From an uncultured Rubritalea sp. (lineage in GTDB: Bacteria > Verrucomicrobiota > Verrucomicrobiia > Verrucomicrobiales > Akkermansiaceae), in contig CAKZNV010000163.1 of the NCBI GenBank assembly GCA_937132085.1, positions 7,441-71,440 on the forward strand: a stretch of 64,000 nucleotides of DNA, read 5' to 3'. The notes below the pieces were generated by a model. The model ran no database searches, had not been told where the DNA came from, and worked only from the letters and a program-made list of their open reading frames with translations. The translations under genes and the position numbers were made by a program. The first letter of the stretch is position 1. Each line of letters begins with the position of its first letter. Below are positions 1,400 to 56,235 of this stretch, one piece after another.

Positions 1400-1475
1400 G
1401 CATGATTAGCTCAGTTGGTAGAGCAATACCTTGACATGGTAGAGGTCACTGGTTCAAATCCAGTATCGTGCACCA
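1400..1475 (+). tRNA. tRNA-Val(GAC)
   Basis: Acceptor stem GCATGAT/ATCGTGC, D arm GCTC-AGTTGGTA-GAGC, anticodon loop TT-GAC-AT, T loop GGTTCAAATCC, encoded CCA; 76 nt. Confidence 0.97.
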
Positions 1476-2915: not shown

Positions 2916-4556
2916 ATGAATAGAAAACAAAAAGCGAAGAGATTCAAAAAGGAAGATAATATTTATAGGCCTATGACTCCTCATGAATCTCGACTGGCAT
3001 CTTATACTTGTCCTTCTGTCCCTCCTGAAGATTCGCTAGAAGGCTTCATTCTCAAACGAAAAATGGAGAAAGACATTGGATTCAAAATATTAATGAGAAA
3101 AATTGAAGCAGACATAAATTTCATTAGAATAGAAGCGGCATTGGGAGGTTCAGGACTATATATGTCCAAGCTTCTGAGAGGATATATTCATGAGTTCTAT
3201 CACCGCTTCAATACATGTGGACCGAAAGGCTTCCCCCTTTCCTTCAACATATTGGAAGCATTTTTCAACTTCGAGCATCTTCCGGCTCCATTCAAACTCC
3301 ATAGAGAGTATGAACATCTGTTGAAGTTAGAAGATTTTCTTATTTGGGGACAAAAAAAAGGGTTCTCAAATCCTCTCCTTGAAATTTCATCGCTCTTAAA
3401 AGAAGGTGAAATTTACTCATTCAACTTTCTACCGAACTCACACACTTTCAACCAGAGGAATGAAACTGACTTTGTTATTGCTGGAATTTCGATCGTTAGG
3501 CACGAACATGAACTATCTTGCGTTCTTCTGACTGGCGAAAGCCCCCCTTCTCTTCAGCCTAATTGCGATACCGATATGGCTACATACGAAGGCATGCCTG
3601 CTGAAAAGGAAAATCTGAAAATTGACCCCACACTAACTGAAGAAGATAGTTTACTTGAAGGCTATCCAGATCATGGCAGGGTTATACTCCTTAGTCGTAT
3701 TAATCTTGCGTCAAGCACGCACGACGTGCGATATATACTTCGAGATCTAGGTAATAGCTATTCTGTATCCACAGATGATCCTTCTGGTCTTGAAGACTTA
3801 AATGCTGACGATAGAGAAAGCTTACTCACGAATTCTCAATCTGTTATTGAAAATTACTCCGAGCTTTTCTCCTTGTTTCTCACACTCATTCAAATACCAA
3901 TTTATCTACATGATAGACAATCCGACGTTACCTCTTTCGATGTGTTTACTGAATATGGCAGTGAGAAAACTATGCCATCTTTACGTAAGCAACTCAAAGA
4001 CTGGCAAAAAGAGATTGATAAAACAAAATCTATCAACGGTCTTACAATTTGGGAAGATGATGACCCATACACTTTAGAAGTCAGCCCTCCTGATATTATT
4101 TTTGAAACAACTGGATACTGGAAACCTCTCTCTAACAATCAATTCGGTGTTGATGCACATGGAAACACTATTGCAGGGAAAACGTGGGTTAGCAGAAAGG
4201 ACAGTTGGGAAACTCCTCCTCCCGAAAGCTTTTTTATTCGTAAGCGCACTCCAATTACCGAAGGAGACAACCCAGGACATATCTACATTATGCGTAGCCC
4301 TTCTCATGAACCAGACATTTACAAAATAGGCCTAACTACAAATGAACCAAAAGACCGTGCTAAGCAGCTCAACAAGACCGCTACACCACTCCCCTTTGAG
4401 GTAATTGCTTCATGGCAAGTTGGAGACTGTAAATCAGCCGAAGCAGAGATACATCGCCTTTTAGAGGCTCGAAGGATCAACCCACGTAGAGAATTTTTCC
4501 ACGCTCCTCTTCAGGAAATAATTCAGATAGTGTCTAGTGTTTGTAATCTCGCTTAG
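2916..4556 (+). CDS. Large protein with C-terminal GIY-YIG (T5orf172-type) domain
   Basis: C-terminal GHIYIM...IYKIGLT...RAKQL...AEAEIH...REFF pattern; the N-terminal ~450 aa are unassigned. Confidence 0.7.
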   Translation: MNRKQKAKRFKKEDNIYRPMTPHESRLASYTCPSVPPEDSLEGFILKRKMEKDIGFKILMRKIEADINFIRIEAALGGSGLYMSKLLRGYIHEFYHRFNTCGPKGFPLSFNILEAFFNFEHLPAPFKLHREYEHLLKLEDFLIWGQKKGFSNPLLEISSLLKEGEIYSFNFLPNSHTFNQRNETDFVIAGISIVRHEHELSCVLLTGESPPSLQPNCDTDMATYEGMPAEKENLKIDPTLTEEDSLLEGYPDHGRVILLSRINLASSTHDVRYILRDLGNSYSVSTDDPSGLEDLNADDRESLLTNSQSVIENYSELFSLFLTLIQIPIYLHDRQSDVTSFDVFTEYGSEKTMPSLRKQLKDWQKEIDKTKSINGLTIWEDDDPYTLEVSPPDIIFETTGYWKPLSNNQFGVDAHGNTIAGKTWVSRKDSWETPPPESFFIRKRTPITEGDNPGHIYIMRSPSHEPDIYKIGLTTNEPKDRAKQLNKTATPLPFEVIASWQVGDCKSAEAEIHRLLEARRINPRREFFHAPLQEIIQIVSSVCNLA

Positions 4557-4577
4557 CTAGAAACCATTAATATGAAT

Positions 4578-4877
4578 TTAAATACGTTCCATCCTCTCCA
4601 GCACCTCTAGTAGATTAATCTTACGAATAACATACTTTTTGCCCAGTTTGAAGACTTTCCCATCCACCTCCTTAAGTTTCTTCTTCATCGTATCTATAGA
4701 AACTCCAGTTTGTGAGCTAAGATCATCTAGAAACACCAAATCTACTAAATCATCTAAGGGCTTCTCTTGAATTATCTGATGCTCTACTTGTATGCGTAAC
4801 TGATCTAAATCACTCACCAATGTTGCTATTTTCTCCAGAGGTGGAAGCTTCTCAGTTTTCTCTTTCGTCGTAACCAT
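4578..4877 (-). CDS. Small HTH DNA-binding protein, putative excisionase/RDF
   Basis: 99 aa; LDDLSSQTGVSIDTMKKK resembles an HTH; converges on the integrase operon. Confidence 0.5.
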   Translation of the reverse strand: MVTTKEKTEKLPPLEKIATLVSDLDQLRIQVEHQIIQEKPLDDLVDLVFLDDLSSQTGVSIDTMKKKLKEVDGKVFKLGKKYVIRKINLLEVLERMERI

Positions 4878-4942
4878 CTACTCATTATACGAATCTAAAC
4901 AGAGATATCTCCAAATTTAGTAGTCACTCAGTTCGGTATAAT

Positions 4943-7900
4943 TTATGATCTAGAGTCTACACTTTCTATAGCCGCACTAACACGAGTAAGCGTGTTTTCC
5001 CACGTTTCCATAGCGTCCGTGTCCGCTAGAACTACTTTTATTACGTCGAATTTCTGGTGCAACTGCCTCCGCGACATCTTTTCATTGGCTATAATTTGCC
5101 TCAGTGCCATGATTTCAATTTTATTAAATCCTTGGCGAATGCATTGGCTCAAATGAACAACTATAGGAGGTAGCGGTTTCTCCTCCCCCTCTCCCGAAAC
5201 ATCTCTGTGCAAGAGAGCTGGGACTCCGTAAATATATGATAATGTAGGAACAAGCCTAAGAGCGAAGCGACGAGCTTTCACACAGGTCTTCAGCTTCGAT
5301 GGATTTGTATTGAAAGCCTTCTCAATCTCACTGAATGGCTGCCCTCTCATCCATAGCTCAGACGCCAGCCTGAGCGAAGGAATGATAATCGAAGTTTTCT
5401 CTTCAGCTCCCTCTGCATCTTTATAGGGTTTTCCAAAAAGTTCCTCCAAGGCCTGAGATCTAAAAATAAATCGTATCATTTCTGGATTTTTTGCCATCCA
5501 GTCAAAAAACCAATTATTCCAATCTTCCAAAGTGGCTAATTCTAGCAAATCCTCAGGAAGAGCCTCTGCAAGCCTCTTAACTAACTCCAAAGGTAACCCT
5601 AGCTTGGTAACAACGAACATTAAGTTAGCTGGAGTTGACTCATCCTCTTCTAAAGCTTCATGTCTCCCCAGTGCTGCAGTAATTCTTTGATCTATCCAAT
5701 CTTCTTTGTTTGCTTTACGAGCTCGAAATCCTGAAAATGACCTTGTAACATTAGAAGCCAAGGCGGATAAACTTTCTTCACTTTCACGTTCAGGCGAAGC
5801 CAAACGACGCAACACATATTCATCGAGATCTGAAATCGGATCAGACGAGTGCGCCCTATCAAGGACGGCCGTGAGTGGATCGTCTATAGTTAAGCACTGA
5901 TCCGACTGGCCAAATATCTCTTTCAAGCTACTCCAGTGACCTCCGATTGATCCAGATTTAACATTAAAAGGGATTACCTTCCCTGGAATAACTAAAACAA
6001 TTCCTGCTGCATTTTCACCCGCACGACCAGCTCGACCAGCAGCATTTAGTAACTCCCTTGCTTGTAGTAACTGACGTTTTTTTGTTTCTTGATTAAATTG
6101 ACTATCTTCTGCAATAATAACTAACTCACTCGGAAGGTTCATCCCTTGAGCTAAAGTAGACGTTGCCATGAGAATTTTTATTCCATCTGGTCTCTTATAC
6201 AACGATTCACACAGTTGCCTCTCTTCTGGAAGTAATAAACCGTGATGCACAGCGGCCGCATCTTGCAACACTCCACCTATTACATTTAAATAAAGATGCT
6301 CAGAAGATCCTAACTCTACTTCCGCTATCTTAAGCAGCTCTAACTCTTCAGAAGAGAGTGGAATCTGCGGGCTACCAAGAGAACTAGTCACCTTATTAAC
6401 TGCACTATTTGCATTTGTTATTGTAGCAAAAAACACCAAACTTTTAAGCCCGCTTTTTGAAGCCGCTACTGTCAGTGATGCAGAAACTTCTCCTGCGTTA
6501 GGAGTAAGTCGCCATTGTTTATTAGCTGCTAAGTTTACTTCTTCACCTAATAATAGGCTCAATCTATAATCTATAATATTAGTAGTTGCCCAAGTCTGCT
6601 TTAGGCTGAACATTCCATATGGAGTCATGTTCAACTGGCGCTTATCAGCACTAGAAGGTGCTTTAGTAGCTCGAATTAGCTTTGCCTCATAGAGCCCTTG
6701 ATTCAAAACATCGACCTGCTCTTCAGTGTAAACGAGTGTGCCTCGTAATTGGCGAGTAGGCTTCCATGATAAATCCAAACTAAGACACTTCCTAGAAGTT
6801 AATTCAGTTAACCATTCTGCAATCTCATCGGTGTTTTTCATCATGGCCGAGAGCAAAAGAAAATCTAAATCTGGCAACAAATTTGAAAGATTAAGAAGGC
6901 ACAGCATTGAGTCTACCGCTCTTTTATCCTCCGTGTTGTCACTGGGATGCAGTAAATGACATTCATCAAAAACAAGAAGCCCTACCTCCTCAAACACTTC
7001 CGGATCAATTCCAATCATCGTCAGACATGCTTCGGGAGTCATAACCATAATTTCAGGTAAATCCTGAAAACCAGAAAGCATACCCAACTCATCAACTCTC
7101 TCACCTTGCACCTTTGACGTAGGAAACGATTTGCGCAGAGACCTCGTTGTTTGGTCAACTAGAGCATGAGTCGGGGCAAGAAAGACGACTTTCCTCTCTA
7201 GCAATAGAACAGAGCTGATTTTGAGTTCTGATAAAGTAGACTTTCCAGCACCAGTAGGAAAGCCGATTACTGATGAAGTGCCAGTCTCAAGATACCCCTT
7301 AGCAATGGCATGAGTATGATTTTTCCATAAATAAGGCCGCTGTTCTGCAATTAATTCAAGACGGTTATTCCAGCCCGCAGCATCAGTATTTAAAGGAGGA
7401 GGAATCTTAGTAACAGCTTGCTTAGGAAGATACTCGGCAACTAAAATTAAAAGTGATGCGAGGTGATAAGGTCCAGAAAAGCAAACAGCAGCTTCATTTG
7501 ATTCAGAAATCAGCGGGTAACTATCGCCTACCGAAAGTTTTTTCACCTTCTTAAAAAGAATAGTCGGCTCATTATCAAGAAGTATATTATCTATTGAGAG
7601 TAAATTTCTTGCTAGAATATAAACACCTTCAGATAGTTGACGATAAAGAGCGTGAGTTGCAGTCTCGGACAAAAAAGTAGATTCTACTCCACTAACACCT
7701 GGAATCCCCCTATCTCTAATATCAGTGAGCCGTCCCATTGCTAAGTCCTGTAAACTTAACATCAACGAGCATAGAATTGGATTTTCATCTGAGTAATCCA
7801 TTGCTTTTGCCATTTCCCTAGCGTCAGCTGGTGCTTCGGAAATTAAAAAAAGTAGCATCGCTGCCACATCGCTTGAAATTCCCTGCATCCCTAAAGAAGT

Positions 7901-8221
7901 CGGCTCTTCATCATCTCCACTACTTCGACTTATATTCGCAAGTAATTGACATGAAGACGCTGCTACAAAAGCAGCAGAAGAACGATGTTCCAGCTCCTCA
8001 ACAGAAACAACTAAGGCTTCATTAGTGGATGATAATCTACGTAGTATGGAGATGACCTTTTGAATTTCCTCTTCATCAACGAGCGAGCCTTCTCTCAACT
8101 GCAGTCTCAACCCTGCTACCTGAGTATAAACATCAGAAAAGAACTCTGGTAGTCTGGCTCTATCTAGTCCCTCCAACTCGGGAGTTTGCCGAATCAAGTC
8201 AGCTGTATATGAATCATACAT
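4943..8221 (-). CDS. Ski2-like DExH helicase, Hachiman HamB-like
   Basis: PTGAGKS, DECH, LSAM, HHG, STLAQGMNLP and AGRAGRAG motifs; overlaps the upstream nuclease-like gene by 8 bp. Confidence 0.75.
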   Translation of the reverse strand: MYDSYTADLIRQTPELEGLDRARLPEFFSDVYTQVAGLRLQLREGSLVDEEEIQKVISILRRLSSTNEALVVSVEELEHRSSAAFVAASSCQLLANISRSSGDDEEPTSLGMQGISSDVAAMLLFLISEAPADAREMAKAMDYSDENPILCSLMLSLQDLAMGRLTDIRDRGIPGVSGVESTFLSETATHALYRQLSEGVYILARNLLSIDNILLDNEPTILFKKVKKLSVGDSYPLISESNEAAVCFSGPYHLASLLILVAEYLPKQAVTKIPPPLNTDAAGWNNRLELIAEQRPYLWKNHTHAIAKGYLETGTSSVIGFPTGAGKSTLSELKISSVLLLERKVVFLAPTHALVDQTTRSLRKSFPTSKVQGERVDELGMLSGFQDLPEIMVMTPEACLTMIGIDPEVFEEVGLLVFDECHLLHPSDNTEDKRAVDSMLCLLNLSNLLPDLDFLLLSAMMKNTDEIAEWLTELTSRKCLSLDLSWKPTRQLRGTLVYTEEQVDVLNQGLYEAKLIRATKAPSSADKRQLNMTPYGMFSLKQTWATTNIIDYRLSLLLGEEVNLAANKQWRLTPNAGEVSASLTVAASKSGLKSLVFFATITNANSAVNKVTSSLGSPQIPLSSEELELLKIAEVELGSSEHLYLNVIGGVLQDAAAVHHGLLLPEERQLCESLYKRPDGIKILMATSTLAQGMNLPSELVIIAEDSQFNQETKKRQLLQARELLNAAGRAGRAGENAAGIVLVIPGKVIPFNVKSGSIGGHWSSLKEIFGQSDQCLTIDDPLTAVLDRAHSSDPISDLDEYVLRRLASPERESEESLSALASNVTRSFSGFRARKANKEDWIDQRITAALGRHEALEEDESTPANLMFVVTKLGLPLELVKRLAEALPEDLLELATLEDWNNWFFDWMAKNPEMIRFIFRSQALEELFGKPYKDAEGAEEKTSIIIPSLRLASELWMRGQPFSEIEKAFNTNPSKLKTCVKARRFALRLVPTLSYIYGVPALLHRDVSGEGEEKPLPPIVVHLSQCIRQGFNKIEIMALRQIIANEKMSRRQLHQKFDVIKVVLADTDAMETWENTLTRVSAAIESVDSRS

Positions 8222-9008
8222 TAGCTGAGTCCGTTAATTTTTCAGCATGAGTAATAGCTTTTACAGCCACTTCACTAAACCAACTCCTTAAGTCATCTCG
8301 ACAAAGTAATTCTGCTAACCTGTCAGACTCCGTCCCATTCTTAGGGAATGCTTCTAACCCCTTAAATAATTTAGCTCTAGATGTAGGAGCAATATGATCT
8401 TCATCAGTTGCAACTGCAACACGATAGCGGCGAACCTTCTCCCAAAAAATCTTACTGACTGTTAAACGTGCATCAATTGAAGTGTTCAAAGCAAGAATAG
8501 TCATAGTCTCAGAAATCAGTTCGTTATCCCTTTCCCCTCTATCAAATGTTCCGAGTTCAGGCCAAACTTTATCTGTAAGCATGCTTCTTGGATTCTCTGT
8601 AGCCTTGTCCTCTCCTATGAGAACAAAATCAGCTTCTTGACCCGACTCTGATAGCCCTATTTGAAGTGAGTCAAATCCTTTATGAGCATGAATCATCTGG
8701 GGGGGAGACTTTAATAATTCAGGATGCGTAATGTGAGAAGCTATCCATGAGATCGTCTGAAATAACCACCCGTCTCTGTGATAGGGCGATGAAGGATTTT
8801 TAACTGTCAAAAGTTTACGAGCCCCCTGCAAGGCAGAAAACTGAGGGGCAATCGATTCGCACCCTGTGTTTTGTAAGATCTCTTGAACATGATGAGCTTG
8901 TCCAAGTGCCACACGCGCCACCATTTCAGCAAGAAGATCATCATTTTCAACCGACCAACATGATCCACTCCACTTAAAGGGGTTCGAGGCTGGAGTAAAT
9001 GTAAACAT
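8214..9008 (-). CDS. PD-(D/E)xK-like protein, Hachiman HamA-like
   Basis: KGFD...IGEDK motif; directly upstream of and coupled to a Ski2-like helicase. Confidence 0.55.
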   Translation of the reverse strand: MFTFTPASNPFKWSGSCWSVENDDLLAEMVARVALGQAHHVQEILQNTGCESIAPQFSALQGARKLLTVKNPSSPYHRDGWLFQTISWIASHITHPELLKSPPQMIHAHKGFDSLQIGLSESGQEADFVLIGEDKATENPRSMLTDKVWPELGTFDRGERDNELISETMTILALNTSIDARLTVSKIFWEKVRRYRVAVATDEDHIAPTSRAKLFKGLEAFPKNGTESDRLAELLCRDDLRSWFSEVAVKAITHAEKLTDSANV

Positions 9009-9195
9009 GGAATAATTATATAAGTAATATTCAAAGCTAACCAGCAGAAAATTTAAATGAATTAAGGCTTATCTATTCGTCTTAATACAACAACAGCATA
9101 GTTGAAGCTTTCCGACGTATCATATCAATATAAGCTTATTCGTCACACATACGATGAACAACAATAGTGACTTCTTTACCACAGTTCCTCACCAG

Positions 9196-9449
9196 TGGTA
9201 ACACTGATGGTAACAAGCCTTTAACTCCTTGAATAAAACAATAAAAAACAAGTGCTTACACCCCGCAATCGAATCCTGCCATCCCAGCCATTAACAAATA
9301 TTAATACCTTTCCCGCAACGTCTCACAAAGCCCCTGTCAGCCTCAGTTTTGGAAGGCAGATAGCCCGCTAAATTGGCTCAAATAGTCCCATTAGGATTCG
9401 AACCTGACCATATAATCTCACCAATCTCATGGTAATAAAAAGGGTAACG
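9196..9449 (+). other. Putative intact attP for Int2: tRNA-Gln 3' core flanked by paired arm-type repeats
   Basis: TGGTAACA at 9196 and 9208; core TCGAATCCTGCCATCCCAGCCA at 9269-9290; TGGTAATA at 9430 and GGGTAACG at 9442. Both pairs have a 12-bp period. Confidence 0.65.
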
Positions 9450-9510
9450 GATTCAACTATTTTACCCTGCGTGACTTCCCTATGTTTAACGACCAAGGTA
9501 AGATCATGAA

Positions 9511-10887
9511 ATGCTTCTAACTGATACAAAAATTCGCAGTGCCAAACCACAGCAAAAACAATACAGGCTTTCCGACGGCGAGTGCCTACACCTAGTCATC
9601 AGACCTAATGGCTCTAGGCTATGGCACTATCGATACGAGTTTTTAGGTAAAGCTAAAACACTTTCTATAGGGAAGTATCCAGAAATTTCACTAGCAGAAG
9701 CTCGTGAGCAAAAACGAGAAGCTAAAAAACTATTAAGAAAAAATATAGATCCATCTGCTCGTAAGCAGCAAGAGCGGTCAATTGCTACGTATAAAGCTAA
9801 CGATACCTTTGAAAAACTGACCCGTGAATGGCATGAGCATAAATCTATACGTTGGAGCCCTAAATATGCAGCAAACACGATAAGAAGGGCTGAAATCCAT
9901 ATTTTTCCTCATATTGGGAAAAGAGCCATCGCCGACGTTACTCCACTTGAAGTTCTAGCGATTATTCAAAAACTCGAATCCGAAGGTAAGACCGACATGA
10001 GCCGTCGTGTCCTAGAAATTATTAATGCTGTATTTAGACGTGCTATCATAACGGGTAGAATTGATCGCAACCCTGCTACGGGTCTAGTTGAAGAGGCAAT
10101 CCCTCATCACGTTGAGCATCACCCAGCTATCACAGAGCAGGAAATTCCCGATTTCCTCAAAGCATTGGATAATCTCAAATGCTATCAGCAATACACGAAG
10201 TATGCTTTCTGGCTTCTTCTCTTAACTGGTGTGAGGCAATGTGAGTTACGTTACTCTAAAAAAAGCGATATTGATTTTAAAGCCAAAGAATGGAGATTAC
10301 GACCAGAAGTTACTAAAATGAAGCGAGTTCACATTGTGGCCTTATCAACTCAGGCTATTTTTGTTCTGCGGAAGTTATTTGAGCTTACTGAATTCAGTGA
10401 ATGGCTCGTTCCATCTCAAAGAACCAAGATTCATCCTGTAATGAGCGAAAACACAATCAACCAAATTATCAAGCGCATGGGTTATAAAGGGAGAATCGTA
10501 GGGCATGGCTTCCGCTCGCTGTTTTCAACTACTCTTAATGATCATGGCTTCGATAGCAAAGTAATTGATCGTCAGCTAGCCCATGTAGGACGTGATAAGA
10601 TAGAGGCTGCGTATAACCGAGCTGAATACAGCAAAAAGCGTCGAGAAATTATGCAATGGTGGGGTGATTTCCTAGATTCACACCGCCCCAGAAATAAGCG
10701 ATTCTGTCCTAAAGAATATGAAATCAAAGGCCACTTCACTTTATCTCAGACTCTGATTCTAATGAATGCAACCCTTTCATACAGCGACGAATCTCTATTA
10801 CATCCCAACCCACAGAACGCTTACCAAGCTTCACAGGCTTTGGGTAAGCCCCTGATTCAATACCACGATACCATGTGCTTTTACTAA
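9511..10887 (+). CDS. P4-type tyrosine integrase (Int2) with N-terminal arm-binding domain
   Basis: MLLTDTKIRSAKP...LSDGECL N-terminus; TGVRQCEL, HGFRS, QLAH and AAYN catalytic motifs. Confidence 0.92.
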   Translation: MLLTDTKIRSAKPQQKQYRLSDGECLHLVIRPNGSRLWHYRYEFLGKAKTLSIGKYPEISLAEAREQKREAKKLLRKNIDPSARKQQERSIATYKANDTFEKLTREWHEHKSIRWSPKYAANTIRRAEIHIFPHIGKRAIADVTPLEVLAIIQKLESEGKTDMSRRVLEIINAVFRRAIITGRIDRNPATGLVEEAIPHHVEHHPAITEQEIPDFLKALDNLKCYQQYTKYAFWLLLLTGVRQCELRYSKKSDIDFKAKEWRLRPEVTKMKRVHIVALSTQAIFVLRKLFELTEFSEWLVPSQRTKIHPVMSENTINQIIKRMGYKGRIVGHGFRSLFSTTLNDHGFDSKVIDRQLAHVGRDKIEAAYNRAEYSKKRREIMQWWGDFLDSHRPRNKRFCPKEYEIKGHFTLSQTLILMNATLSYSDESLLHPNPQNAYQASQALGKPLIQYHDTMCFY

Positions 10888-10957
10888 CTGGTATGACAGT
10901 CAAAACTTGACTTAATCTAACATAGCCTTCTTTAGGCATCTCTAACATATTTTTCAC
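10736..10957 (-). CDS. AlpA-family excisionase/regulator
   Basis: VRLSQVL...VSKSTWYRGIESGAYPKPVKLGKRSVGW is the AlpA pattern; converges on Int2. Confidence 0.85.
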   Translation of the reverse strand: MKNMLEMPKEGYVRLSQVLTVIPVSKSTWYRGIESGAYPKPVKLGKRSVGWDVIEIRRCMKGLHSLESESEIK

Positions 10958-11277
10958 AACTACTCCCTTATTTAAAATTTTGAATAAGACTGTATAATAG
11001 CCTCTTCAATCATACGGAAGCCCCTGATATGAAATTTCATCCCTTACTTTCTTTATCCTATTCACAATCTACCCTCCTGATCCTACCACAAGGTGAAATA
11101 TAAAACCTCCAATCACTCAGAGCAAAGCTCTTCATAATTTCCAGTTTAAAAATTCACCTCCCCCATACATATAGCTGGTTTGAACCGACTTTGTCGGATC
11201 AGATTCCTTATCTTGCTCCTAATAGAAGTGTTGTATATTTGCCACACGTAACAAAAAAGTGACACTACCACCAATTG

Positions 11278-12178: not shown

Positions 12179-13510
12179 CTAATAATTTCGGGCTCTACGC
12201 TTTGCTTCGCGGATGAGTAAGCCGTTCGGACGCCCTTGCAAAGCGGCGCAAATTGTCATTCCCAACCTAAATCTACGCAACACCTCCAGCCTCGCTAGCT
12301 TCTGCCTATGCCGCTTTTGAATCATTTTCGGTCTTTCTTGCATCTTCACTGGTGCTCTATCGTGCGGAGTAGAGCGTTGACCTGCATTGCCTTCCTCAGT
12401 ATCTCTTGCCTCCTGCTTATGCTTTTCACTCTCGTTATTCTCAACCACCAACTCCTCTTTAAGACCATGCTCTATGTCTGCACCAGTCTTGATCAAAGCC
12501 ATCTGCAACTCTTTCTTTTCACTGCGGGTTAATAAAGAATTCTGAAATCTCTTCACCTTCTCTCTGCTAGAACTCAACATTTTGTTAGAACGTGCATCTA
12601 CAACAAAGCTCTTCACCTCCTTCCAGCTAGGTTTTCTATGAAAGGCTTCTTCAAACTCCCTTCTAAATCGAATCTTCGCCTCCCTAGACCGCTCCTTAAT
12701 AAATTGTTCAACACGAGCCTTATTCGGCTCTTGACCAAACAACTCCTGATATCTCCTCACAAACCGCTCTCGCTGAATACTTCGCTGTGAAAACTTTCTC
12801 TCTATAGTGTGAGAAACCTCATTAAGCCGAAAGCCATGCTCTCCCCAACTCACAGTATAGCCAATCGCCTCTGCTCTCTTTGCCAAATTCTGATAAAAAT
12901 ATTCTCGGATAGAAATCTTACTTTCCTCCATCATAGGACGTGGCTGTAAGGCTAGCCATTTTTGCCGATCTTCACAATATGTCACATTCCCAAACACCAA
13001 ATGTGTATGCAATAATGGATCTAACATTCTGCTCGTGTCATGCTGATAAACAGCGCACACCGCATTACCTGTAATCCGATATGACTCAGTATTCACATTC
13101 GTCCCATGCCGAACTCGAACCGCCGCAAACTCTTCCAGCTTCTTAAACGTTTCAATACTAGCTTTATGATACGCCTCAACCAAGCGTTCATCCCCTCCCG
13201 TTAGAGCCATTATACTATAAGACTTAGGAGCGGAAACGACTACATCGTGATAAGCCACTATCCGACTTCTCGGTGTCAGCTTCTCCCCTGTAAATGGATG
13301 CTGATTATTTCGTATTGCCTGAAAATGCTCTTCCTGGACTTCCACACCTAACAAACCCAACTTCTCCGCACCTTGACCATGCCAATAGCCTACCACCTTC
13401 TCGCTCTCGGAGTAATAATCGTTCGCAGAAAGGTGAACTCGTAAATAGTCCTTCCCATCCCTAATCTGGCTAATCGTAATCATCGTTCTAATAGTGATAC
13501 GGAAAACCAA
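12179..13510 (-). CDS. MOBF (TrwC-type) relaxase without helicase domain; likely start at 13483
   Basis: NDYY, YWHGQGAEKLGL, SAPKSYS and HDTSR..DP.LHTH (3-His) motifs; no Walker A motif. Confidence 0.88.
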   Translation of the reverse strand: MVFRITIRTMITISQIRDGKDYLRVHLSANDYYSESEKVVGYWHGQGAEKLGLLGVEVQEEHFQAIRNNQHPFTGEKLTPRSRIVAYHDVVVSAPKSYSIMALTGGDERLVEAYHKASIETFKKLEEFAAVRVRHGTNVNTESYRITGNAVCAVYQHDTSRMLDPLLHTHLVFGNVTYCEDRQKWLALQPRPMMEESKISIREYFYQNLAKRAEAIGYTVSWGEHGFRLNEVSHTIERKFSQRSIQRERFVRRYQELFGQEPNKARVEQFIKERSREAKIRFRREFEEAFHRKPSWKEVKSFVVDARSNKMLSSSREKVKRFQNSLLTRSEKKELQMALIKTGADIEHGLKEELVVENNESEKHKQEARDTEEGNAGQRSTPHDRAPVKMQERPKMIQKRHRQKLARLEVLRRFRLGMTICAALQGRPNGLLIREAKRRARNY

Positions 13511-18580: not shown

Positions 18581-19228
18581 TTACCTCCTCCCTCGCTTAG
18601 CGTCTAAAACCTCTAAGCCTATACGTATTCGATTCACACACCATTCTACGTCTTCTATACTCCAGTTTAGAATCTCATTTAAATAACGCCCTATCCTATC
18701 TACATCCACTTTGCCTCTAGAATGACTAGATGCAGAACATATGAATTCATCCAATCTACGGACATCATAGAAATGATGACTCAAGGGGTGATGAGCCAAA
18801 TACATTTCAAATTTAGAGCGTGTCTTAGCCCCACTAATCGCTGACTTTAGAGTTAATTCAGCACTTGTCGACTTAACTAGCAGCCCCCATTTTTTCTCTT
18901 TAGCAAAAGCTTTAAGGCTCTTTTCAAAACTATTGAGAAAGCTATTATACTCCTCTACAGACAATTCTGATTTCGATTGTGGAACTATATTAGTCAACTG
19001 TAATGATGCTCCATCAGATGTAGCGAAATGTATAGAGGGGTATGGTTCAGCATAAACTGCATGGGCTACAATAGCATCAGAATCAATAGCTCTTCGATAC
19101 ATTAATGTTTGCTTCCTCAAATACTCATATTCATGAGATCTCTCGACAAACAAACTCACATACTCAACTAAATCTCTAGAGTCTTTTTCTGTAGCTCTAA
19201 TTGTCAATTCTTGAAACACCATCATCAT
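18581..19228 (-). CDS. Hypothetical protein coupled to the Mrr-like nuclease
   Basis: 215-aa ORF; ATGA overlap with the upstream gene. Confidence 0.6.
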   Translation of the reverse strand: MMMVFQELTIRATEKDSRDLVEYVSLFVERSHEYEYLRKQTLMYRRAIDSDAIVAHAVYAEPYPSIHFATSDGASLQLTNIVPQSKSELSVEEYNSFLNSFEKSLKAFAKEKKWGLLVKSTSAELTLKSAISGAKTRSKFEMYLAHHPLSHHFYDVRRLDEFICSASSHSRGKVDVDRIGRYLNEILNWSIEDVEWCVNRIRIGLEVLDAKRGRR

Positions 19229-20229
19229 TTTACTATAGAACGCTTTATTAAGCTTAGCAGTTCCCTATAATCTATTAATTGAAGTTCCCATGTATGCTTC
19301 TCTGCAAAAGCAACAGCATCTTTAGTGAACCCCGATGTCGTTGCTATTATTGCCTTAGATGCTCCTTCACTTATTTTCACACCATACAATTCCCTAACCT
19401 GAGAAACAGACACTTTCCTCTCTTTTTTATACCTTTTACATTCTATAATATGCTTAAGCATTATATTACCGGGGTTACCAATTGCTAAAATATCACGTCC
19501 TCCATCCCTCGTCCTCTGGGTTAAACAAACTTCATACCCCATCTTAGAAAAAACAGTTCCGACAAGTTCCTCAAAAAATCTAGGATCTACCGAATACAAT
19601 GATTGGGGGTTATCAACGAATCCTTCTGCTATTTTACTACTAACTTCGATAAAGATTTCATCATCTAGGTAATTTGAATCTTCAGGCGTCCAAATATTAG
19701 AATATTTCTCATGTATTAAAAACTCTATTGCTTCCCGAACTTCATCAAAAATGCTATCAGGATCTCGTCTCGAATACCTCTCTTCAACTCCTAAATCATA
19801 GATTTTTCCCTCCAAAATATCTAACTGTTCAAGAGCCTTATACCACTCTCCTCTAGTCGACAGCTCAATTGCTAAATCTCTATCTTGAGCCATTGATTCA
19901 AAATGCCCATCACAATATATTCTTTGATTCGCTTCAAATTCATACTCACCTGCATTTTTATCCACCAAATATGACTGGTGTTCTAACTCTGATATAACAT
20001 CTCCATTAGGCATCGTTATAAACCCTCGAGGATTCATGGGGATACCTGTTACTGTATCAGGTATTATCAATCGTCTATCTGGGATTCCTATAATAGCTCC
20101 CAACTTATTTAGTTGGGTTTCTATTTTTGATCGCTTCCGGTCACATATATGTAACAATTGCTTTTCACTTGGCATTGAATTGATTTTCTCAATCAGAAAC
20201 ATACTGTCAAGAATACTATTTATTCTCAA
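19225..20229 (-). CDS. Restriction endonuclease with C-terminal Mrr catalytic domain
   Basis: FEELV..VF..MGY.V..T..TRDGGRDI...IECKRY...V.V..VRELYG...ATTSGFT..A. Confidence 0.82.
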   Translation of the reverse strand: MRINSILDSMFLIEKINSMPSEKQLLHICDRKRSKIETQLNKLGAIIGIPDRRLIIPDTVTGIPMNPRGFITMPNGDVISELEHQSYLVDKNAGEYEFEANQRIYCDGHFESMAQDRDLAIELSTRGEWYKALEQLDILEGKIYDLGVEERYSRRDPDSIFDEVREAIEFLIHEKYSNIWTPEDSNYLDDEIFIEVSSKIAEGFVDNPQSLYSVDPRFFEELVGTVFSKMGYEVCLTQRTRDGGRDILAIGNPGNIMLKHIIECKRYKKERKVSVSQVRELYGVKISEGASKAIIATTSGFTKDAVAFAEKHTWELQLIDYRELLSLIKRSIVK

Positions 20230-33055: not shown

Positions 33056-34513
33056 ATGAGATTTATCATCGCCATCACTACCCTCAGTATTGGTTCATGG
33101 TTCAGTCTTTATGTCCATGGCTCGTATTACTTAAGCCTACTTGCCTGCTCATTATTACTGGCGATATGCTGCTTATTCTACCGGAAGAGGTTGATCATTT
33201 TAAGGTGCGGATCACTCACTTGGACACAAGAGGAGCTATGCAGACACATCTTAATCTCTGGCGATACAGGAAGCGGTAAGACATTAAGTGGTTTCCATCC
33301 TATACTAGTTCAACTAACAAAAAATTTGCCCAATTGGGGCGGGCTAGTGCTGGGTGTGAAAGGTGATGAGCATGAATTCATCGAAGAACTCACAGAAGCT
33401 CATGGTAGGTCTCACGATGTCATTCATTTGCAAATCAGACCAGACGGTGAATCGACTAAATGGAAGCCACAACATCGATACAATTTTCTGAGTGACCGAT
33501 CAATCCCATGGATGACTCATGCTAAAGCCGTTGTTGATGTTGCCGCCAGCATGACCGAAGGAAAACAACATGCATTCTTTCGACCTATCGCTCAGATAGC
33601 TTTAGCCAATGCGTTCACCTTGCTTGATGAGCTAGATGAACCTGTGACTCTGACAAGAGCCTATTCCCTGCTCACTTCGTTGGATACGACTCAAGCGACA
33701 TTGAAACGCTTCAAGCGGATAGTGACAACCGCCAAACAACAGGAGCTAGCTAATTTCTTCGATTCCACTTTCATCCAGGCCAAAGCCCATGAACAACAAG
33801 AGGCAATCAAAGGCACTCTGACCACCTACATGTCATTCTTTCTAGATCCTGATGTAGCTAATGTATTTTCTAGTGACGAACCCAATACCTTCTCATTTTG
33901 TCAAATCGATCAAGGAGCAATCATCACGCTAACAATGCCTCAGAGACTCATATCTGAAAGACGCTATGTTCAGACTTACTTGAAAATTCTGTTCTATCTT
34001 CATGCTCTAAGACGTTTTGACAAACCAAGCAAAGAACGAAAGAATGAAAATCTCATCCTCCTAGTAGCTGATGAATTCCAAGATATTGTTACAGCCAGTG
34101 AAGACGGAATAAGCGACCATAAAATAATCGATCGTATCCGCTCAGCCAATGCCGCCATCATCGCTGGAATGCAATCAGAGATCTCTGCAGACCCAACTAT
34201 CGGGCAAATCAAACGCAAAGTTCTCACACTCAACATGAGAACTAGACTCATCTTTAAAGCCGCAGAACACGAAGGAGCTACACTCAGCGCAGAGTTCATC
34301 GGTAAAAAAGAAATCTGGAAAACCACCAAAACCTCCAGCGGCTATGACCGCACCAGCTACACAAAACGTAAAGAGGAAGAATACAAAATCAAACCAACAA
34401 AACTAATGAGCCTCGGTGACCACGTAGCGATCATCGTCCATCCTTCAAAGAAATGGATCAAAAAGAAAATAGCTCCGTTGAATGGCAAGGGTAAGGTTTA
34501 TGATTGGTATTAA
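33056..34513 (+). CDS. Type IV coupling protein (TraD/VirD4-like)
   Basis: Two N-terminal TMs, RHILISGDTGSGKT Walker A, LVADEFQ Walker B, R..N..I...MQS. Confidence 0.85.
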   Translation: MRFIIAITTLSIGSWFSLYVHGSYYLSLLACSLLLAICCLFYRKRLIILRCGSLTWTQEELCRHILISGDTGSGKTLSGFHPILVQLTKNLPNWGGLVLGVKGDEHEFIEELTEAHGRSHDVIHLQIRPDGESTKWKPQHRYNFLSDRSIPWMTHAKAVVDVAASMTEGKQHAFFRPIAQIALANAFTLLDELDEPVTLTRAYSLLTSLDTTQATLKRFKRIVTTAKQQELANFFDSTFIQAKAHEQQEAIKGTLTTYMSFFLDPDVANVFSSDEPNTFSFCQIDQGAIITLTMPQRLISERRYVQTYLKILFYLHALRRFDKPSKERKNENLILLVADEFQDIVTASEDGISDHKIIDRIRSANAAIIAGMQSEISADPTIGQIKRKVLTLNMRTRLIFKAAEHEGATLSAEFIGKKEIWKTTKTSSGYDRTSYTKRKEEEYKIKPTKLMSLGDHVAIIVHPSKKWIKKKIAPLNGKGKVYDWY

Positions 34514-35185: not shown

Positions 35186-35521
35186 TCACTCCATCACCGA
35201 AATCTGATCAATCCTAGCATCTTTCTCAGGCAGAAATATACCTGACGGCAGTTCTCGGAGATAGATCACTCTATGGTCTGTAATTGCCTTATGAATCACA
35301 TCTAGGTTTGCACCAACGACAATCACCTTGCTTTGCGTGAACTCGATGCGTAAGGCATGAGACAAGCCTTTGACTCCGTAGAGATGATTATATCCAGCAG
35401 AGTAGCGTGATTTATCACGCTTGATGAAGGTGAGCATGTTTGAACGGTCCCTGAACTTCACAAACTCATAGCACTCAGTCTTTGACCGACCGTCAAAGCC
35501 ATTAAAAACCTCCTCACTCAT
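35186..35521 (-). CDS. Small relaxase-linked protein (paralog of 11840-12166)
   Basis: ATGA overlap with the relaxase 2 stop; G.NLD motif. Confidence 0.6.
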   Translation of the reverse strand: MSEEVFNGFDGRSKTECYEFVKFRDRSNMLTFIKRDKSRYSAGYNHLYGVKGLSHALRIEFTQSKVIVVGANLDVIHKAITDHRVIYLRELPSGIFLPEKDARIDQISVME

Positions 35522-38217
35522 GCTACCCCTCTTTGCAATGACGTTGCTGGCTGAGGTTGCGAACGCACACTTACTTCTGTTACCCGATTCGCAAGCTCTT
35601 GCTGAGTTTCGTCTAACCTCTTCTGCTCTAACAATTCTTGAGCTAACATTCCTTGTCTACTCCTACTCACCCCCTCAATAAAATCTGCCTTATTCTCTAC
35701 CCAAATCGAAATTTCCTCTCTAGCCCTAGATGCACTGACATAGAACTGTTCCATACTTTCTGCTCCTTGACTCTGTGCCCCCTGACAGATGATTACTTTC
35801 TGCGTTGTCTTACCTTGACTTGCATGACTAGTAGAAACATACCCATATGCAATGGCTGTTGTTCCCTTCGCTATTTTACTGCCATTTTGAAGCTCTATTT
35901 CACCCGTATCTGTAATTGACTTCACCTGATGCACCGAACCGTTATAAATCCTCTTCCCTTCGATACTTTTGACGTTTTTGGTAAAGCGAATCTTATCATT
36001 CACAACTAGTTTCAACGGTATTTGCTCAAACACTTCAAAATGCGTTGAAAAGCTTAAATCTAATCTTTTCAGTGCCTCTGAATGCTCCGAACTGAGTATA
36101 ATCTGCCCGTCTTGCACAGCTTCTATTTTATACGATTCCCCTCTCTTAGAAACTCCGGCCACCCCTTTATGAAAACAAATCACATTGCCCACTTCCAGAA
36201 AATGCGCCATCTGCTTTTGTGCATCGGTCAGATTTTTATTGCGATAACTTATCACTTCTTTCTCTTCTGAACTTAAATAACCTATCGATTTGAGCTTCTC
36301 TCTAATGGCAGAAGTAACAAGCCGCCCTTCTGCGTGAGAAGGTGACACGACCAAAGTATTTTTGCCAACTCCATCAACATAATCTTGAGCGACAAGCTTC
36401 AATTTTTCAGCTAAATCATCATATTCTTTGATAGCTCCCATTTCATCAAATATCTCAACTGCGTCTATCACATTTCCAACACTCAAACACTCAACAGCCT
36501 CCTTATATTGAGCTAGTTTCTGTCGATAGATAGTGCGTGTCTCTTTCACTTCAACCAAGCCACTATCTGTCACCAAGCGCAAACTCCCCCTACCCACACT
36601 TTTATGTTGAAAAACATCACCACTAAGCACTATACGATTTCCATATTTTTCACTTATTTCAAACAGCTTACTAAGCTCTTTTGCCGAGAGCATGCCTGCT
36701 TCATCAACCCACAACACGGCATGACTCGCTTCTTCCTGTAAAGCTGTATTGAGTAAAAATTGCTGAATCGTCTCGCTGTTTTCGAAACCTTCTTGCTTTA
36801 GCACCTGATGGCTCGCCTGTGATGTCGGAGCAAATGTATACACGCGCTCGCCAAATTTCATCATCGAATCTATTGCCGCTTTCATCATCGTAGTCTTTCC
36901 TGTTCCAGCCTTTCCAGCCACTACAAACACACGATCTTTAGAACGCATCAAAGCCTCAACGACCGACTTCTGTTCATCATCTAAGTTAGAATCTTGAAGG
37001 CTAAACTCAGAATGTATCTGATATTGCGTTCCTTTAGTCCGAGCTAAGAATTTTAGTATTTTATTCTCTTCTTCCAACACTAATTTAGTAGTCACATATT
37101 CAGTATTATTCTTGCTACTAATAATCAATTCATCACGTCCTGCTATTTCATCCTCTACCTCTTCTACCGTGCAACTACCAAGTGAATTTTGCAAAACCTC
37201 TGCGATAAGCCTACGATACTGCATCACACTATCTCGCTCGAACATAGAATCGATGGTCTGATCTACCACTTGCTTTAAATCAACATGAATGCTTTCATTT
37301 GCGTCCCAATCATAATCATCGCCCACTCTGTTAGCACGCTCCAGCCACTGATTCCGCATCTCACTCTTGCTTGTATTCGTGATTTTAGGATTACGAGTGC
37401 GTGAAGCTAAGCCATCCATCGCTTTTTTATCCCCAGCAATGCCTAATTCCTCTGCCAGATGCTCTATTTCCTCAGATCGTTTTGAAAACTCATCAATCAA
37501 AGCCTGTGATACTCCCCTCACCTCAAAGCCAAACTTCTTATTGATAATTTCATAGCCAAGCTCTTTCAATCCCATCGCCAATCGACTATGAAAAGCCGCT
37601 TGAAAATACGGAGCTTCTTTTACAACATGATACAGATCTACTGCTTGAAACCTAGCATCATGTAACGTTGTATTAAAAGTATAGGCATGACAATGAAGCG
37701 CAGGATCGCATTCCATCCGTTTTGAATTCTCATTAAACACAGGTCTGGAAACCAAATGAGTAAACTCAGCCCACACCAAATTACCTGTCTTGGCTTCCGT
37801 AGCAACACCACCCTTACGCACACGCACATAAGCACTTTCCTCCACACTCAACATCGTATCTCTAACAGCTTTCTGAAACACAGACAGCACTCTCTCATCA
37901 GAAAAAACGCTATAGAGAATTGAGACTGACTTAGGAGCAGCCCAGGTCAGATCGCATCCACAGCGCCGATCAAGATCTTCTCTAGGGTTCAACTTTCCAA
38001 GCGTATCAGGTCTACGATTATCACACAAAAGCGAGAAATCATCCTTCTCAACATCGCCACTGAGCCCCAAAACACCAGCCGCTTTCCCCGCCCAAACCCC
38101 ACAACCAACCTCCTGCCCATAATAATCCCCCTGAGCCAGCCCAGAATTATAATACGACTTCGCCGCCCCTACTGTTTTACTGTGATGAATTCTCAGCATC
38201 CAACATGTATATACCAC
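35518..38217 (-). CDS. MOBF relaxase-helicase (TrwC/TraI-like); likely start at 38199
   Basis: SYY...DYY, AAPKSVS, H..SRP...DPALHCH, Walker A GKAGTGKTT, VDEAGM and GYVSTSHASQGKT. Confidence 0.92.
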   Translation of the reverse strand: MVYTCWMLRIHHSKTVGAAKSYYNSGLAQGDYYGQEVGCGVWAGKAAGVLGLSGDVEKDDFSLLCDNRRPDTLGKLNPREDLDRRCGCDLTWAAPKSVSILYSVFSDERVLSVFQKAVRDTMLSVEESAYVRVRKGGVATEAKTGNLVWAEFTHLVSRPVFNENSKRMECDPALHCHAYTFNTTLHDARFQAVDLYHVVKEAPYFQAAFHSRLAMGLKELGYEIINKKFGFEVRGVSQALIDEFSKRSEEIEHLAEELGIAGDKKAMDGLASRTRNPKITNTSKSEMRNQWLERANRVGDDYDWDANESIHVDLKQVVDQTIDSMFERDSVMQYRRLIAEVLQNSLGSCTVEEVEDEIAGRDELIISSKNNTEYVTTKLVLEEENKILKFLARTKGTQYQIHSEFSLQDSNLDDEQKSVVEALMRSKDRVFVVAGKAGTGKTTMMKAAIDSMMKFGERVYTFAPTSQASHQVLKQEGFENSETIQQFLLNTALQEEASHAVLWVDEAGMLSAKELSKLFEISEKYGNRIVLSGDVFQHKSVGRGSLRLVTDSGLVEVKETRTIYRQKLAQYKEAVECLSVGNVIDAVEIFDEMGAIKEYDDLAEKLKLVAQDYVDGVGKNTLVVSPSHAEGRLVTSAIREKLKSIGYLSSEEKEVISYRNKNLTDAQKQMAHFLEVGNVICFHKGVAGVSKRGESYKIEAVQDGQIILSSEHSEALKRLDLSFSTHFEVFEQIPLKLVVNDKIRFTKNVKSIEGKRIYNGSVHQVKSITDTGEIELQNGSKIAKGTTAIAYGYVSTSHASQGKTTQKVIICQGAQSQGAESMEQFYVSASRAREEISIWVENKADFIEGVSRSRQGMLAQELLEQKRLDETQQELANRVTEVSVRSQPQPATSLQRGVA

Positions 38218-38340: not shown

Positions 38341-39453
38341 ATGCCAGTAAAGTTCAAACTAGACCAAGTAATTTTAGGATGTGCTCCTATATCATATCGA
38401 CGAGGTGATAGCCCCAAGCTGATTTATAGAGAACTGTTGTCGCCTGAAGATCCTGAGTTAATCGATAGATTAGAGCAACTTCATGGTTGCATTTTTTCTA
38501 AAATTACAGGTTTACCAGAACCTTCACACGTTAAAGATCTCGTTATCATAATTAATAAAGAGCTTGATGGCTTAGCATACATTGATGAATTAAAGGTTAA
38601 CGGAGTCGTAGATTATAATAAAAAAGAAGCCGTAATTGGTGATCCAATTAGAATTTCAGATATAAAAAAAATTATTTCTATCGATTTAGGTATTAACATT
38701 TCACCTGAAGATGCTGTAATTATTGTCCGAAGTTTTTCATGGAAAAGATCTTTATTTTTCGATTTTGGACCTTTGCATAATAGCACAGGACCTAGAACCT
38801 ATGATATCCAAAAAGCTTTAGCACAACAATTAAGTCTATTACTAGGAATCCCTTCATCATCGGAGCCTACAACTCAAGGCAGAACTAGAGTTCAAGAAAT
38901 GAAACGCTCTTTGGACAAATTTGATGCTCTATTAGCCAGAAACTGTAAAGAAGAAAGCTACTATCAAAAATTATTAAATGAAGCCCCTTGGATGTTCGGA
39001 TCGTCCTATAGTAAACTTAAGAGGCACAAAAAATTAGATGATGAGAATATTCCTGATTTAACACTAGTTCGCTCATACGATGAGTGTCATGATATTGTAG
39101 AACTAAAACAGCCTTTCTTGAAAATATTCAAGAAAGACAATACATTCGCATCTGCTTTTCACAACGCTTGGGATCAAGCGGAGAGATACTTGAATTTTTG
39201 TGATAATCAGCGGAGCTACTTAAAGGAAGAGAAGGATTTAGATTTTCAAAATCCCACCTGCATTCTATTAATAGGTAACTCATATGATAACGAACAAGCC
39301 AAACTAATAAAGAGTAAGGAAGCATTCAACTCAAGAATTCGTGTAATGTCATACCAGCAATTAAAGCAACAAGCAGAACATATTTTAGAAACCTCAATGA
39401 GGACACAAGACCGAAATTACAGCCCAAAATCTACCATCTCACCTAGTGAATAA
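38341..39453 (+). CDS. Shedu (SduA, DUF4263)-like nuclease
   Basis: C-terminal E..YQ..L...PW.FG, PDL...DIVELK.P and AWDQAERY motifs. Confidence 0.72.
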   Translation: MPVKFKLDQVILGCAPISYRRGDSPKLIYRELLSPEDPELIDRLEQLHGCIFSKITGLPEPSHVKDLVIIINKELDGLAYIDELKVNGVVDYNKKEAVIGDPIRISDIKKIISIDLGINISPEDAVIIVRSFSWKRSLFFDFGPLHNSTGPRTYDIQKALAQQLSLLLGIPSSSEPTTQGRTRVQEMKRSLDKFDALLARNCKEESYYQKLLNEAPWMFGSSYSKLKRHKKLDDENIPDLTLVRSYDECHDIVELKQPFLKIFKKDNTFASAFHNAWDQAERYLNFCDNQRSYLKEEKDLDFQNPTCILLIGNSYDNEQAKLIKSKEAFNSRIRVMSYQQLKQQAEHILETSMRTQDRNYSPKSTISPSE

Positions 39454-44737: not shown

Positions 44738-45333
44738 TTGATTGGTGTGGTTTGAATTTGAAATGAACTGACTAAGGTCGGATAAGCTCCATTAGCCGAG
44801 ATTTGCGGATTCCTCACAAAGGTTAAATTCACCTTTAGATAAAGCCCTTCATCAAATGACCTCCCTGAAAAACTACCAAAGCGAATCAATTGTCCTTCAA
44901 CAACCATCTCAATACTCCCGTCTGTAGCTTGCAACATCGATATTTTGGAAATCTCTACTTTTTGATGAATCTCTTGCTCTTTAAATCGATCCGCTTCCGA
45001 GAGCAGATATTTCAATGCTTGATTATAAGCTGATTGGTCAAAGAGCCTCTTCATTCTCTTAGGCTGATCCACTCCATTAGCATGACGGTTAAACAATGCC
45101 TCAACTGCCATCGTTGCTTGATCATCATGGAGCTGCTTGGCTTCTGTAAAATCTAAGAGCTTGTCGAGATAGTAAGTTTTCTCGCCCACTACTAAAACCT
45201 GCATTTCAGCATTGATTCGGCTTACTAGATGCCAACGGTCTATAGAGAAACCGACGAATGTCAGAATGAACATCACGCACCATAATCTCGCTTGATTCCT
45301 GTGACCTTTAAAAGTATTTATTGCATTCTTCAT
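44734..45333 (-). CDS. VirB8/TrbF-like T4SS protein
   Basis: Single N-terminal TM, ~200 aa, position between virB6 and virB9. Confidence 0.55.
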   Translation of the reverse strand: MKNAINTFKGHRNQARLWCVMFILTFVGFSIDRWHLVSRINAEMQVLVVGEKTYYLDKLLDFTEAKQLHDDQATMAVEALFNRHANGVDQPKRMKRLFDQSAYNQALKYLLSEADRFKEQEIHQKVEISKISMLQATDGSIEMVVEGQLIRFGSFSGRSFDEGLYLKVNLTFVRNPQISANGAYPTLVSSFQIQTTPIK

Positions 45334-56210: not shown

Positions 56211-56235
56211 TTTCAGAAAACCAACAACTGTCTCA

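Follow-up and report, generated by a model that had tools for sequence, protein, structure and literature searches.

Positions 9176-9467 of the DNA analyzed here (64 kb in full, hereafter called the window) probably constitute the complete, unrecombined attP site of a P4-type tyrosine integrase, Int2, which together with this site would form a native and still functional module of an ICE backbone. A second integrase, Int1, and the cargo next to it would then be an interchangeable add-on to this backbone. A functional standby integration module is the most likely description of Int2 and its site, in an element that now resides at a tRNA-Val gene.

Two integration modules in one ICE

The chromosomal target of the element is the tRNA-Val(GAC) gene that ARAGORN calls at 1400-1475 (+ strand). 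The 3' 49 nt of this gene (1427-1475) are the attL of Int1, and the right copy of the same 49-bp repeat at 56345-56393 (+ strand) is its attR and the right end of the ICE, the two direct copies bounding an element of 55 kb. The int1 gene (1608-2885, + strand) encodes a divergent tyrosine recombinase of 425 aa with a weak match to PF00589, and its att sites have arms built of TCGCCACTA repeats: three direct copies in the P' or int-proximal arm (1537-1566, + strand) and three direct plus two inverted copies in the P or distal arm (56236-56297, + strand). There are 21 matches of TCGCCACTA in the window versus 8.7 expected, and they are clustered at both ends of the element. Contigs in runs X10, X11 and X5, the chromosome flanks of which are near-identical, show the empty site, since they join the 5' half of tRNA-Val directly to the sequence from 56345 onward. 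The presence of integrase, relaxase, coupling protein and T4SS genes between the target repeats, together with this empty-site allele, identifies the element as an ICE. The host, a marine bacterium, is assigned by SerA homologues to Verrucomicrobiota, close to Akkermansiaceae and Rubritalea. Integration of the element at tRNA-Val, claimed in a preliminary description of this DNA, is thus borne out by the 49-bp repeat, the TCGCCACTA arms at both ends and the empty-site contigs.

Because the outer att sites bear a different arm motif (TCGCCACTA) from that of the Int2 site, we attribute the present insertion to Int1 and not to Int2; the outer ends carry Val cores with Int1 arms, and no Gln cores. 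Int1 is 94% identical in a related element (L077) inserted at the same tRNA-Val, where three TCGCCACTA repeats are kept, and the dN/dS of int1 in this comparison is 0.07. The relatives of Int1 in the phage collection are exclusively integrases of Akkermansia phages. The homology of run X6 to the window starts precisely at 56235; the Logan unitigs of this run end within the 49-bp Val core, with depths that fit either linkage of the Int1 attP. A recent homologous fusion of the two modules was considered and found unsupported, since no homology was found between the junctions of the Int1 segment with the rest of the ICE (~9100 and ~56230).

The inner attP lies 7.6 kb inside the ICE, the two integration modules being 7.6 kb apart. 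Its core is the 22-mer TCGAATCCTGCCATCCCAGCCA at 9269-9290 (+ strand), present as a single copy in the 64-kb window. Counted back from CCA, this 22-mer is identical to positions 55-76 of tRNA-Gln, from the T-loop to CCA; the base preceding it is A instead of the T54 of the tRNA, and the 5' half of the T-stem is missing. Since ARAGORN calls no whole tRNA at 9269-9290 (the sole tRNA called in the window is the tRNA-Val(GAC) mentioned above) and a Rfam scan of 8900-9600 gave no match, the 22-mer is a tRNA fragment rather than a gene. Scanning public metagenome contigs for CAGG followed by the 22-mer returned 113 stretches, which read as 75-nt genes starting with TGGGATG and having the anticodon UUG or CUG; ARAGORN calls them tRNA-Gln. 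The 22-mer had previously been read as the 3' end of a Gln-type tRNA with TGGGATG as predicted acceptor, and these genes agree with the reading on both counts; such identity with the 3' end of tRNA-Gln(UUG/CUG) genes, through which an integration event leaves the tRNA restored, qualifies the 22-mer as an attP core. The identity block of Int1 begins in the anticodon loop and the core of Int2 in the T-loop, which correspond to the two symmetric sublocation classes known for tRNA-targeting integrases (bioRxiv 10.1101/2020.11.02.365908). The earlier statement that the core has no partner in the window extends to imperfect copies, as none was found there with up to three mismatches over the 22 nt or, for the 15-nt 3' part, with up to two mismatches. 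A nested element bounded inside the window was rejected for want of a partner Gln core, and so was a simple tandem of two Val-targeting elements, there being no degenerate tRNA-Val core near 9000-9300.

An attP site is recognized by arm sites flanking its core on the left and on the right, in contrast to the one-sided attL and attR. At 9269-9290, arm-type repeats occur on both flanks. The P arm (9176-9214, + strand) comprises an inverted KGGTAA at 9176-9181 and the direct pair TGGTAAC-N5-TGGTAAC at 9196-9214 (TGGTAACACTGATGGTAAC), and the P' arm (9430-9467, + strand) comprises the direct pair TGGTAAT-N5-GGGTAAC at 9430-9448 (TGGTAATAAAAAGGGTAAC), 82 bp upstream of int2, and an inverted site at 9462-9467. 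Six KGGTAA sites therefore fall within 292 bp, in the order (-)(+)(+) core (+)(+)(-), on a background of 0.28 sites per 300 bp (Poisson P ~5e-7 per stretch of that length). The pattern KGGTAAY-N5-KGGTAAY has two matches in the 64 kb, one on each side of the core, for 0.01 expected, so that the paired (T/G)GGTAA repeats reported earlier to flank the core were both recovered, and nowhere else in the 64 kb. In the comparison with L077, the core is conserved at 22/22 positions and the P pair at 18/20 (90%), amid diverged flanks: the sequence to the left of the P pair is 40% conserved and the spacer to its right 56%. Since relatives located beside whole tRNAs keep only the int-proximal pair, we take the left pair as the P arm and the site, having both P and P' arms, as an attP, in agreement with the preliminary description.

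As had also been proposed, the site is followed by an intact P4-type integrase and an AlpA protein. The int2 gene (9511-10887, + strand) encodes 458 aa with the Pfam domains Arm-DNA-bind_3 (PF13356), Phage_int_M (PF22022) and Phage_integrase (PF00589), and is called P4-type from these domain models; it also matches NCBIfam PRK09692, at 262 bits, which is below the cut-off of 434 bits. Besides its arm-binding N-domain, the protein has the R-H-R-H-Y residues of integrases, for which R242, H332, R335, H358 and Y368 are the candidates located by motif. Int2 is 40% identical to phage tyrosine integrases; its exact protein sequence has no database record, and megablast of 8900-11000 against the plasmid collection gave no match. 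(Of note, Int2 relatives match residues 1-392 only, the C-terminal tail being lineage-specific). The alpA gene (10736-10957, - strand; 73 aa) belongs to the AlpA family (PF05930, E = 1e-12), is convergent with int2 and overlaps its 3' end, the last 152 bp of int2 (10736-10887) being shared with alpA on the opposite strand. Its position is the same in L077, L081, L082 and L083, and the protein may serve Int2 as recombination directionality factor or as regulator. The intact ORF, conserved motifs and purifying selection suggest that Int2 is functional: the dN/dS of int2 is 0.12 at a dS of 0.50 versus the 89%-identical protein of L077 and, together with the value for int1, indicates purifying selection since these two dual-integrase elements diverged.

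A variable cargo slot (2916-9008) occupies the space between int1 and the inner attP. In the window it contains the gene of a T5orf172 protein (2916-4556) matching the PD-Lambda-1/PDC-S57 models, a 99-aa ORF without family match (4578-4877, - strand), and an unannotated 264-aa gene (8214-9008) placed before a HamB-like DEAD helicase (4943-8221), with which it forms a Hachiman-like pair. The slot in L077 and L078 holds PIN/MazE and CTD11/MC7/DUF2326 instead, but retains the 99-aa ORF, with 93% identity in L077 and 81% in L078, whose Int1 is just 42% identical; the product of this ORF might regulate the outer module or act as its directionality factor.

The ICE backbone (11366-51080) includes small ORFs, conjugation genes and defence cargo (Mrr, Shedu). 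Near its start, ORFs of 142 aa and 108 aa lie between alpA and a short MobF/TrwC relaxase (12179-13510, - strand; 443 aa, relaxase domain only). The backbone further contains T4CP (33056-34513), a TrwC relaxase-helicase of 899 aa adjoining this coupling protein (35518-38217, - strand), TrbI/VirB10-like (42840-43919) and TrbL/VirB6-like (45330-46391) genes and a VirB4/TraG-P-loop ATPase (48426-51080). Two MobF/TrwC relaxases are present in this one ICE, and the 443-aa copy by int2 and alpA is conserved in relatives. The defence cargo outside the slot (19225-20229, 38341-39453 and 52791-56210) consists of a Mrr-like type IV restriction enzyme, Shedu SduA and a 1139-aa NACHT/STAND NTPase, the last in a segment of 34-36% GC that adjoins the right end of the ICE. 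A perfect 26-bp palindrome at 51122-51147, between the VirB4-like gene and the following ORF, may be a terminator or a protein-binding site.

Recurrence of the inner site among relatives

Fourteen relatives have a contig that spans the site (Int2 identity 49-100%), and in each of them the site is unrecombined, with a tRNA 3' fragment between arm pairs. L202 is an ENA assembly contig of 55,122 bp that is identical to the window where compared. (This contig starts ~50 bp before tRNA-Val and by its coordinates should end just past the right repeat; such ends would fit an assembler break at a branch with co-occurring empty-site strains). L077 (JGI, 277 kb) derives from a related host, has 89% identity in Int2, 94% in Int1 and 91% in SerA, and presents in order tRNA-Val, three copies of TCGCCACTA, Int1, different cargo, the Gln core with both arm pairs, Int2, AlpA and the backbone. 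The sequence from 1427 to 56393 is contiguous in the window and L202, and L077 shows the matching left-hand 17 kb.

Other relatives with a Gln core have Int2 identities of 67% (L080), 66% (L081 and L082) and 62% (L083 and L084); the core is identical in L077, L078, L080, L082 and L084, and differs at two positions in L081. Relatives with other tRNA cores show 64% (L236), 55% (L237) and ~50% identity (L001, L002, L003 and L007). Pairs with a 12-bp period lie on both sides of the core in L077, L080, L081, L082, L084, L001, L002, L003 and L007 and, as judged by eye, in L236 and L237; the left arm pair is degenerate in L078 and L083. Among the relatives, the left pair is 55-75 bp from the tRNA 3' fragment and the other pair 60-140 bp before int, and the arm motif varies with the integrase (GGTAAC, GGGGTAT, GGGTAT or GGGTAA). 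The attP-like cores of other tRNAs include a Phe-type end in L003 and different ends in L001, L002, L007, L236 and L237; all these sites have ICE genes on both sides, some of the contigs measuring 0.3-2 Mb. Relatives with 47% identity or less are mostly beside whole tRNAs, and those so placed have the int-proximal pair only (e.g., L004, L006 and L008). This pair is at the same position in 20 of the 23 tRNA-adjacent distant relatives, in which a search for an attR with a P pair found no repeat within the 10-kb flanks.

The block formed by int2, alpA, the 142-aa and 108-aa ORFs and the short TrwC is syntenic in L077 and L081-L083, with T4CP next in L083. L079 and L080 retain int2 and TrwC together with counterparts of the two small ORFs, and no AlpA is called in either; ~8 kb of cargo intervenes in the block of L080. 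The window and L077 share Int1 as the upstream recombinase; L078 has instead an Int1-like protein (42%), L083 an integrase of 317 aa and L080 an unrelated integrase of 435 aa, which lies beside an inverted tRNA fragment. A second integrase of 424 aa lies immediately downstream of int2 in L237, in convergent orientation, and none was found within 10 kb in L081, L082 and L084. (The inverted fragment of L080, at 5803-5870, is a long-arm tRNA 3' end, tentatively Leu-type by eye and not called by ARAGORN, ~130 bp upstream of the 435-aa integrase; the ICE of L080 may have its outer boundary there). From the synteny of int2, alpA and TrwC, the variable upstream recombinase and the restriction of Int1 relatives in the phage collection to Akkermansia phages, we infer that Int2 and its attP are the backbone's own. 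Since the two-integrase layout recurs in independent assemblies and diverged relatives (L077, L078, L080, L083 and L237), the element is not a one-off cointegrate, a possibility that the preliminary description had entertained.

In L078, the Int2 cassette corresponding to 9241-10747 matches the window at 99.7% identity over 1.5 kb, which hold the core, the P' arm and the greater part of int2. This cassette sits in an otherwise different element (L078; runs X1, X2 and X4). Its sharp breakpoints at 9241 and 10747 are outside the core, which argues for homologous rather than site-specific exchange of the integrase module.

Possible use of the tRNA-Gln site and alternative explanations

The search for relatives integrated at tRNA-Gln through this site, which the preliminary description had proposed, yielded one. 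A contig of run X6 has the tRNA-Gln(UUG) sequence CAACGGGTTTTGATCTCGTCATGCGCAGGT, that is the anticodon arm, variable loop and T-stem, joined precisely at 9269 to window sequence: CAACGGGTTTTGATCTCGTCATGCGCAGGT terminates a different sequence of at least 255 nt, and ~135 nt of related P' region follow. By its sequence, this junction is the attL expected from a relative integrated at tRNA-Gln via this core. The recombined form is seen in this one short unitig only, versus the unrecombined form in 14/14 spanning relatives. A metagenome scan for the attL pattern of tRNA-Gln followed by the P' pair gave no matches, and no close Int2 relative was present at any of 57 such metagenome loci for which the sequence downstream of tRNA-Gln exceeds 1.5 kb; the one downstream integrase among the 113 tRNA-Gln loci is that of L100, with 39% identity. 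Four viral contigs carrying the 22-mer have no Int2 relative, and a search of run X10 for the matching tRNA-Gln end gave no alignment, host coverage there being just 3-6x. In L169 (7617-9173), an ORF for a 518-aa serine recombinase contains at its 3' end, in antisense orientation, a tRNA-Gln that ends in this 22-mer, and a type I restriction-modification gene set is adjacent. This tRNA-Gln seems to be targeted by unrelated islands too.

On this evidence, the module could work as follows. The excised circle would carry both attP sites and might dock either at tRNA-Val by means of Int1 or at tRNA-Gln by means of Int2. In the present host Int1 would have been used, with the inner Int2 site then remaining silent, either from Int2 not being expressed while the ICE is integrated, or from the host having no matching attB, or from attP x attB recombination on the same chromosome being lethal or rare. 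Were Int2 to act on a chromosomal tRNA-Gln, either a deletion or an inversion, the latter splitting the ICE, would result, depending on orientation (following the logic of PMC5882170). The Int1 module and the cargo slot would have been inserted just upstream of attP. Host-range extension and chromosome rearrangement might be brought about by the inner module. Against a standby module stands the consideration that its routine use should show more tRNA-Gln junctions than that of X6 alone. The bias of the Int2 clade toward the unrecombined form may come from clade-wide reliance on an outer recombinase, from assembly breaks at tRNA genes, or from another role of Int2. We regard as possible, though rather doubtful, the broader proposition that a whole clade, mainly of Verrucomicrobiota, keeps its native P4-type integrase and attP permanently unrecombined as a selected device and relies on interchangeable outer recombinases for residence. 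If true, the device could serve second-tRNA docking in new hosts, programmed inversions and bipartite states, or a fixed recombination site beside which defence cargo and foreign integrase modules gather.

Recombination at the second site could alternatively be programmed, the inner attP reacting with tRNA-Gln after Int1 has acted and splitting the ICE by inversion into two parts of the chromosome, as happens in multipartite ICEs, in which case the window would represent an assembled or pre-dispersal state. One ICE with two integrases and an att site for each fits this idea, as do the passage of tripartite ICEs through internal-attP states (PMC5882170) and the selection acting on an Int2 that is unused for the present insertion. 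However, attP and int are contiguous with ICE genes in the window, L202 and L077, and likewise in the larger chromosomal contigs L080, L237, L002 and L003, where no dispersed attL/attR pair is seen. Moreover, the X6 attL would equally be given by simple integration at tRNA-Gln, and AlpA is the one clear RDF candidate; we thus find a programmed reaction improbable. The same constancy of the unrecombined site in every spanning contig examined, and the fact that Int1 fully explains the present insertion, could be taken to mean that Int2 and attP are an inactive relic of a tRNA-Gln-using ancestor, made redundant by the gain of Int1. Such decay is quite unlikely, given an intact ORF with candidate R-H-R-H-Y residues and a dN/dS as low as that reported above, over a dS of 0.50, in a lineage already having both integrases. 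The fully conserved core and the arm pairs preserved amid diverged flanks, the co-variation of arm motif and integrase across relatives, and the use of the site by a relative in X6 point in the same direction.

Should the site instead serve the circular ICE and not chromosomal docking, for instance in multimer resolution following rolling-circle replication, module exchange among ICEs residing together or a regulatory nucleoprotein complex at the int2 promoter, one would understand why it is unrecombined clade-wide (14/14 relatives at 49% identity or more, those at 47% or less being mostly at whole tRNAs). The distance of 82 bp between the P' pair and int2 makes autoregulation plausible, and the cargo directly left of attP is highly variable. 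We nevertheless hold this unlikely, for different relatives have cores that match perfectly the 3' ends of different tRNAs (Gln; Phe in L003; others in L001, L002, L236 and L237), a pattern to be expected only with periodic resetting of attP through integration into, and excision from, tRNA genes, and the mosaic breakpoints of L078 outside the core indicate homologous exchange. It is very improbable that the site is an artefact or an ordinary junction, be it an attR/attL fusion in a tandem array or an assembly chimera of circular ICE and chromosome. Tandem arrays do yield attP-like internal sites, and the source contig of 80.5 kb is probably metagenome-assembled; yet the same order is found in three separately assembled contigs (the window, L202 from ENA and L077 from JGI), the window has no other Gln core and shows Val cores with Int1 arms at the outer ends, and the upstream segment is without an Int2-type integrase.

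Comparison with known systems

The usual description of an ICE gives it a single integrase, a single target and a single att pair. The present element combines two complete integration modules that differ in integrase lineage and tRNA sublocation class; one of them is used, and the other is intact and conserved. If both work, a single element could choose between two chromosomal targets, with effects on host range, stability and the risk of ICE-driven chromosome rearrangement, and would exemplify, in a simple and natural form, an intermediate step toward multipartite ICEs. Between the modules lies a variable locus of defence genes, Hachiman-like here and of other systems in relatives. Tools that delimit islands by an integrase plus a tRNA fragment would wrongly divide this ICE at 9269-9290.

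In accretion arrays, the same core occurs three times and the integrases are of one family. The element resembles the products of tandem accretion (ICE/CIME and ICE/IME) in the attP-like site internal to a composite island and in the modular nature of its cargo and integrases, but differs in that the inner (Gln, 22 bp) and outer (Val, 49 bp) cores, the arm motifs and the integrases are all unrelated. Instead of at least three copies of the same core, it has one Gln core, with two Val cores that are confined to its outer ends.

Likeness is also found with the attP sites of P4-type (Arm-DNA-bind_3/DUF4102) tRNA-targeting tyrosine integrases from genomic islands, ICEs and phages, which share the N-terminal arm-binding domain, the repeated arm-type sites, the adjacent AlpA-family gene, the core from T-loop to CCA (T-loop sublocation class; bioRxiv 10.1101/2020.11.02.365908) and the location of int ~220 bp downstream. 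Unlike these, the present site is unrecombined inside a chromosomally integrated element and not in an excised circle, and its carrier is held in the chromosome by another integrase.

The element is also similar to tripartite ICEs such as ICEMcSym1271 of Mesorhizobium (PMC5882170, with Haskett et al. 2016 cited therein), with several tyrosine integrases that have their own att sites and different targets, including tRNA genes: Int1 with tRNA-Val and TCGCCACTA arms is combined here with Int2, tRNA-Gln and KGGTAA arms. Internal attP sites occur in some recombination states of ICE3, which in its resting state is dispersed over three chromosomal regions, every site being an attL or an attR, and whose three RDFs are controlled hierarchically (PMC5882170). 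In contrast, our element has two modules and an intact inner attP, is contiguous from 1427 to 56393 with no dispersal observed, and belongs to a Verrucomicrobiota host and a MobF/TrwC relaxase type; on account of this contiguous resting state, we do not classify it as a multipartite ICE.
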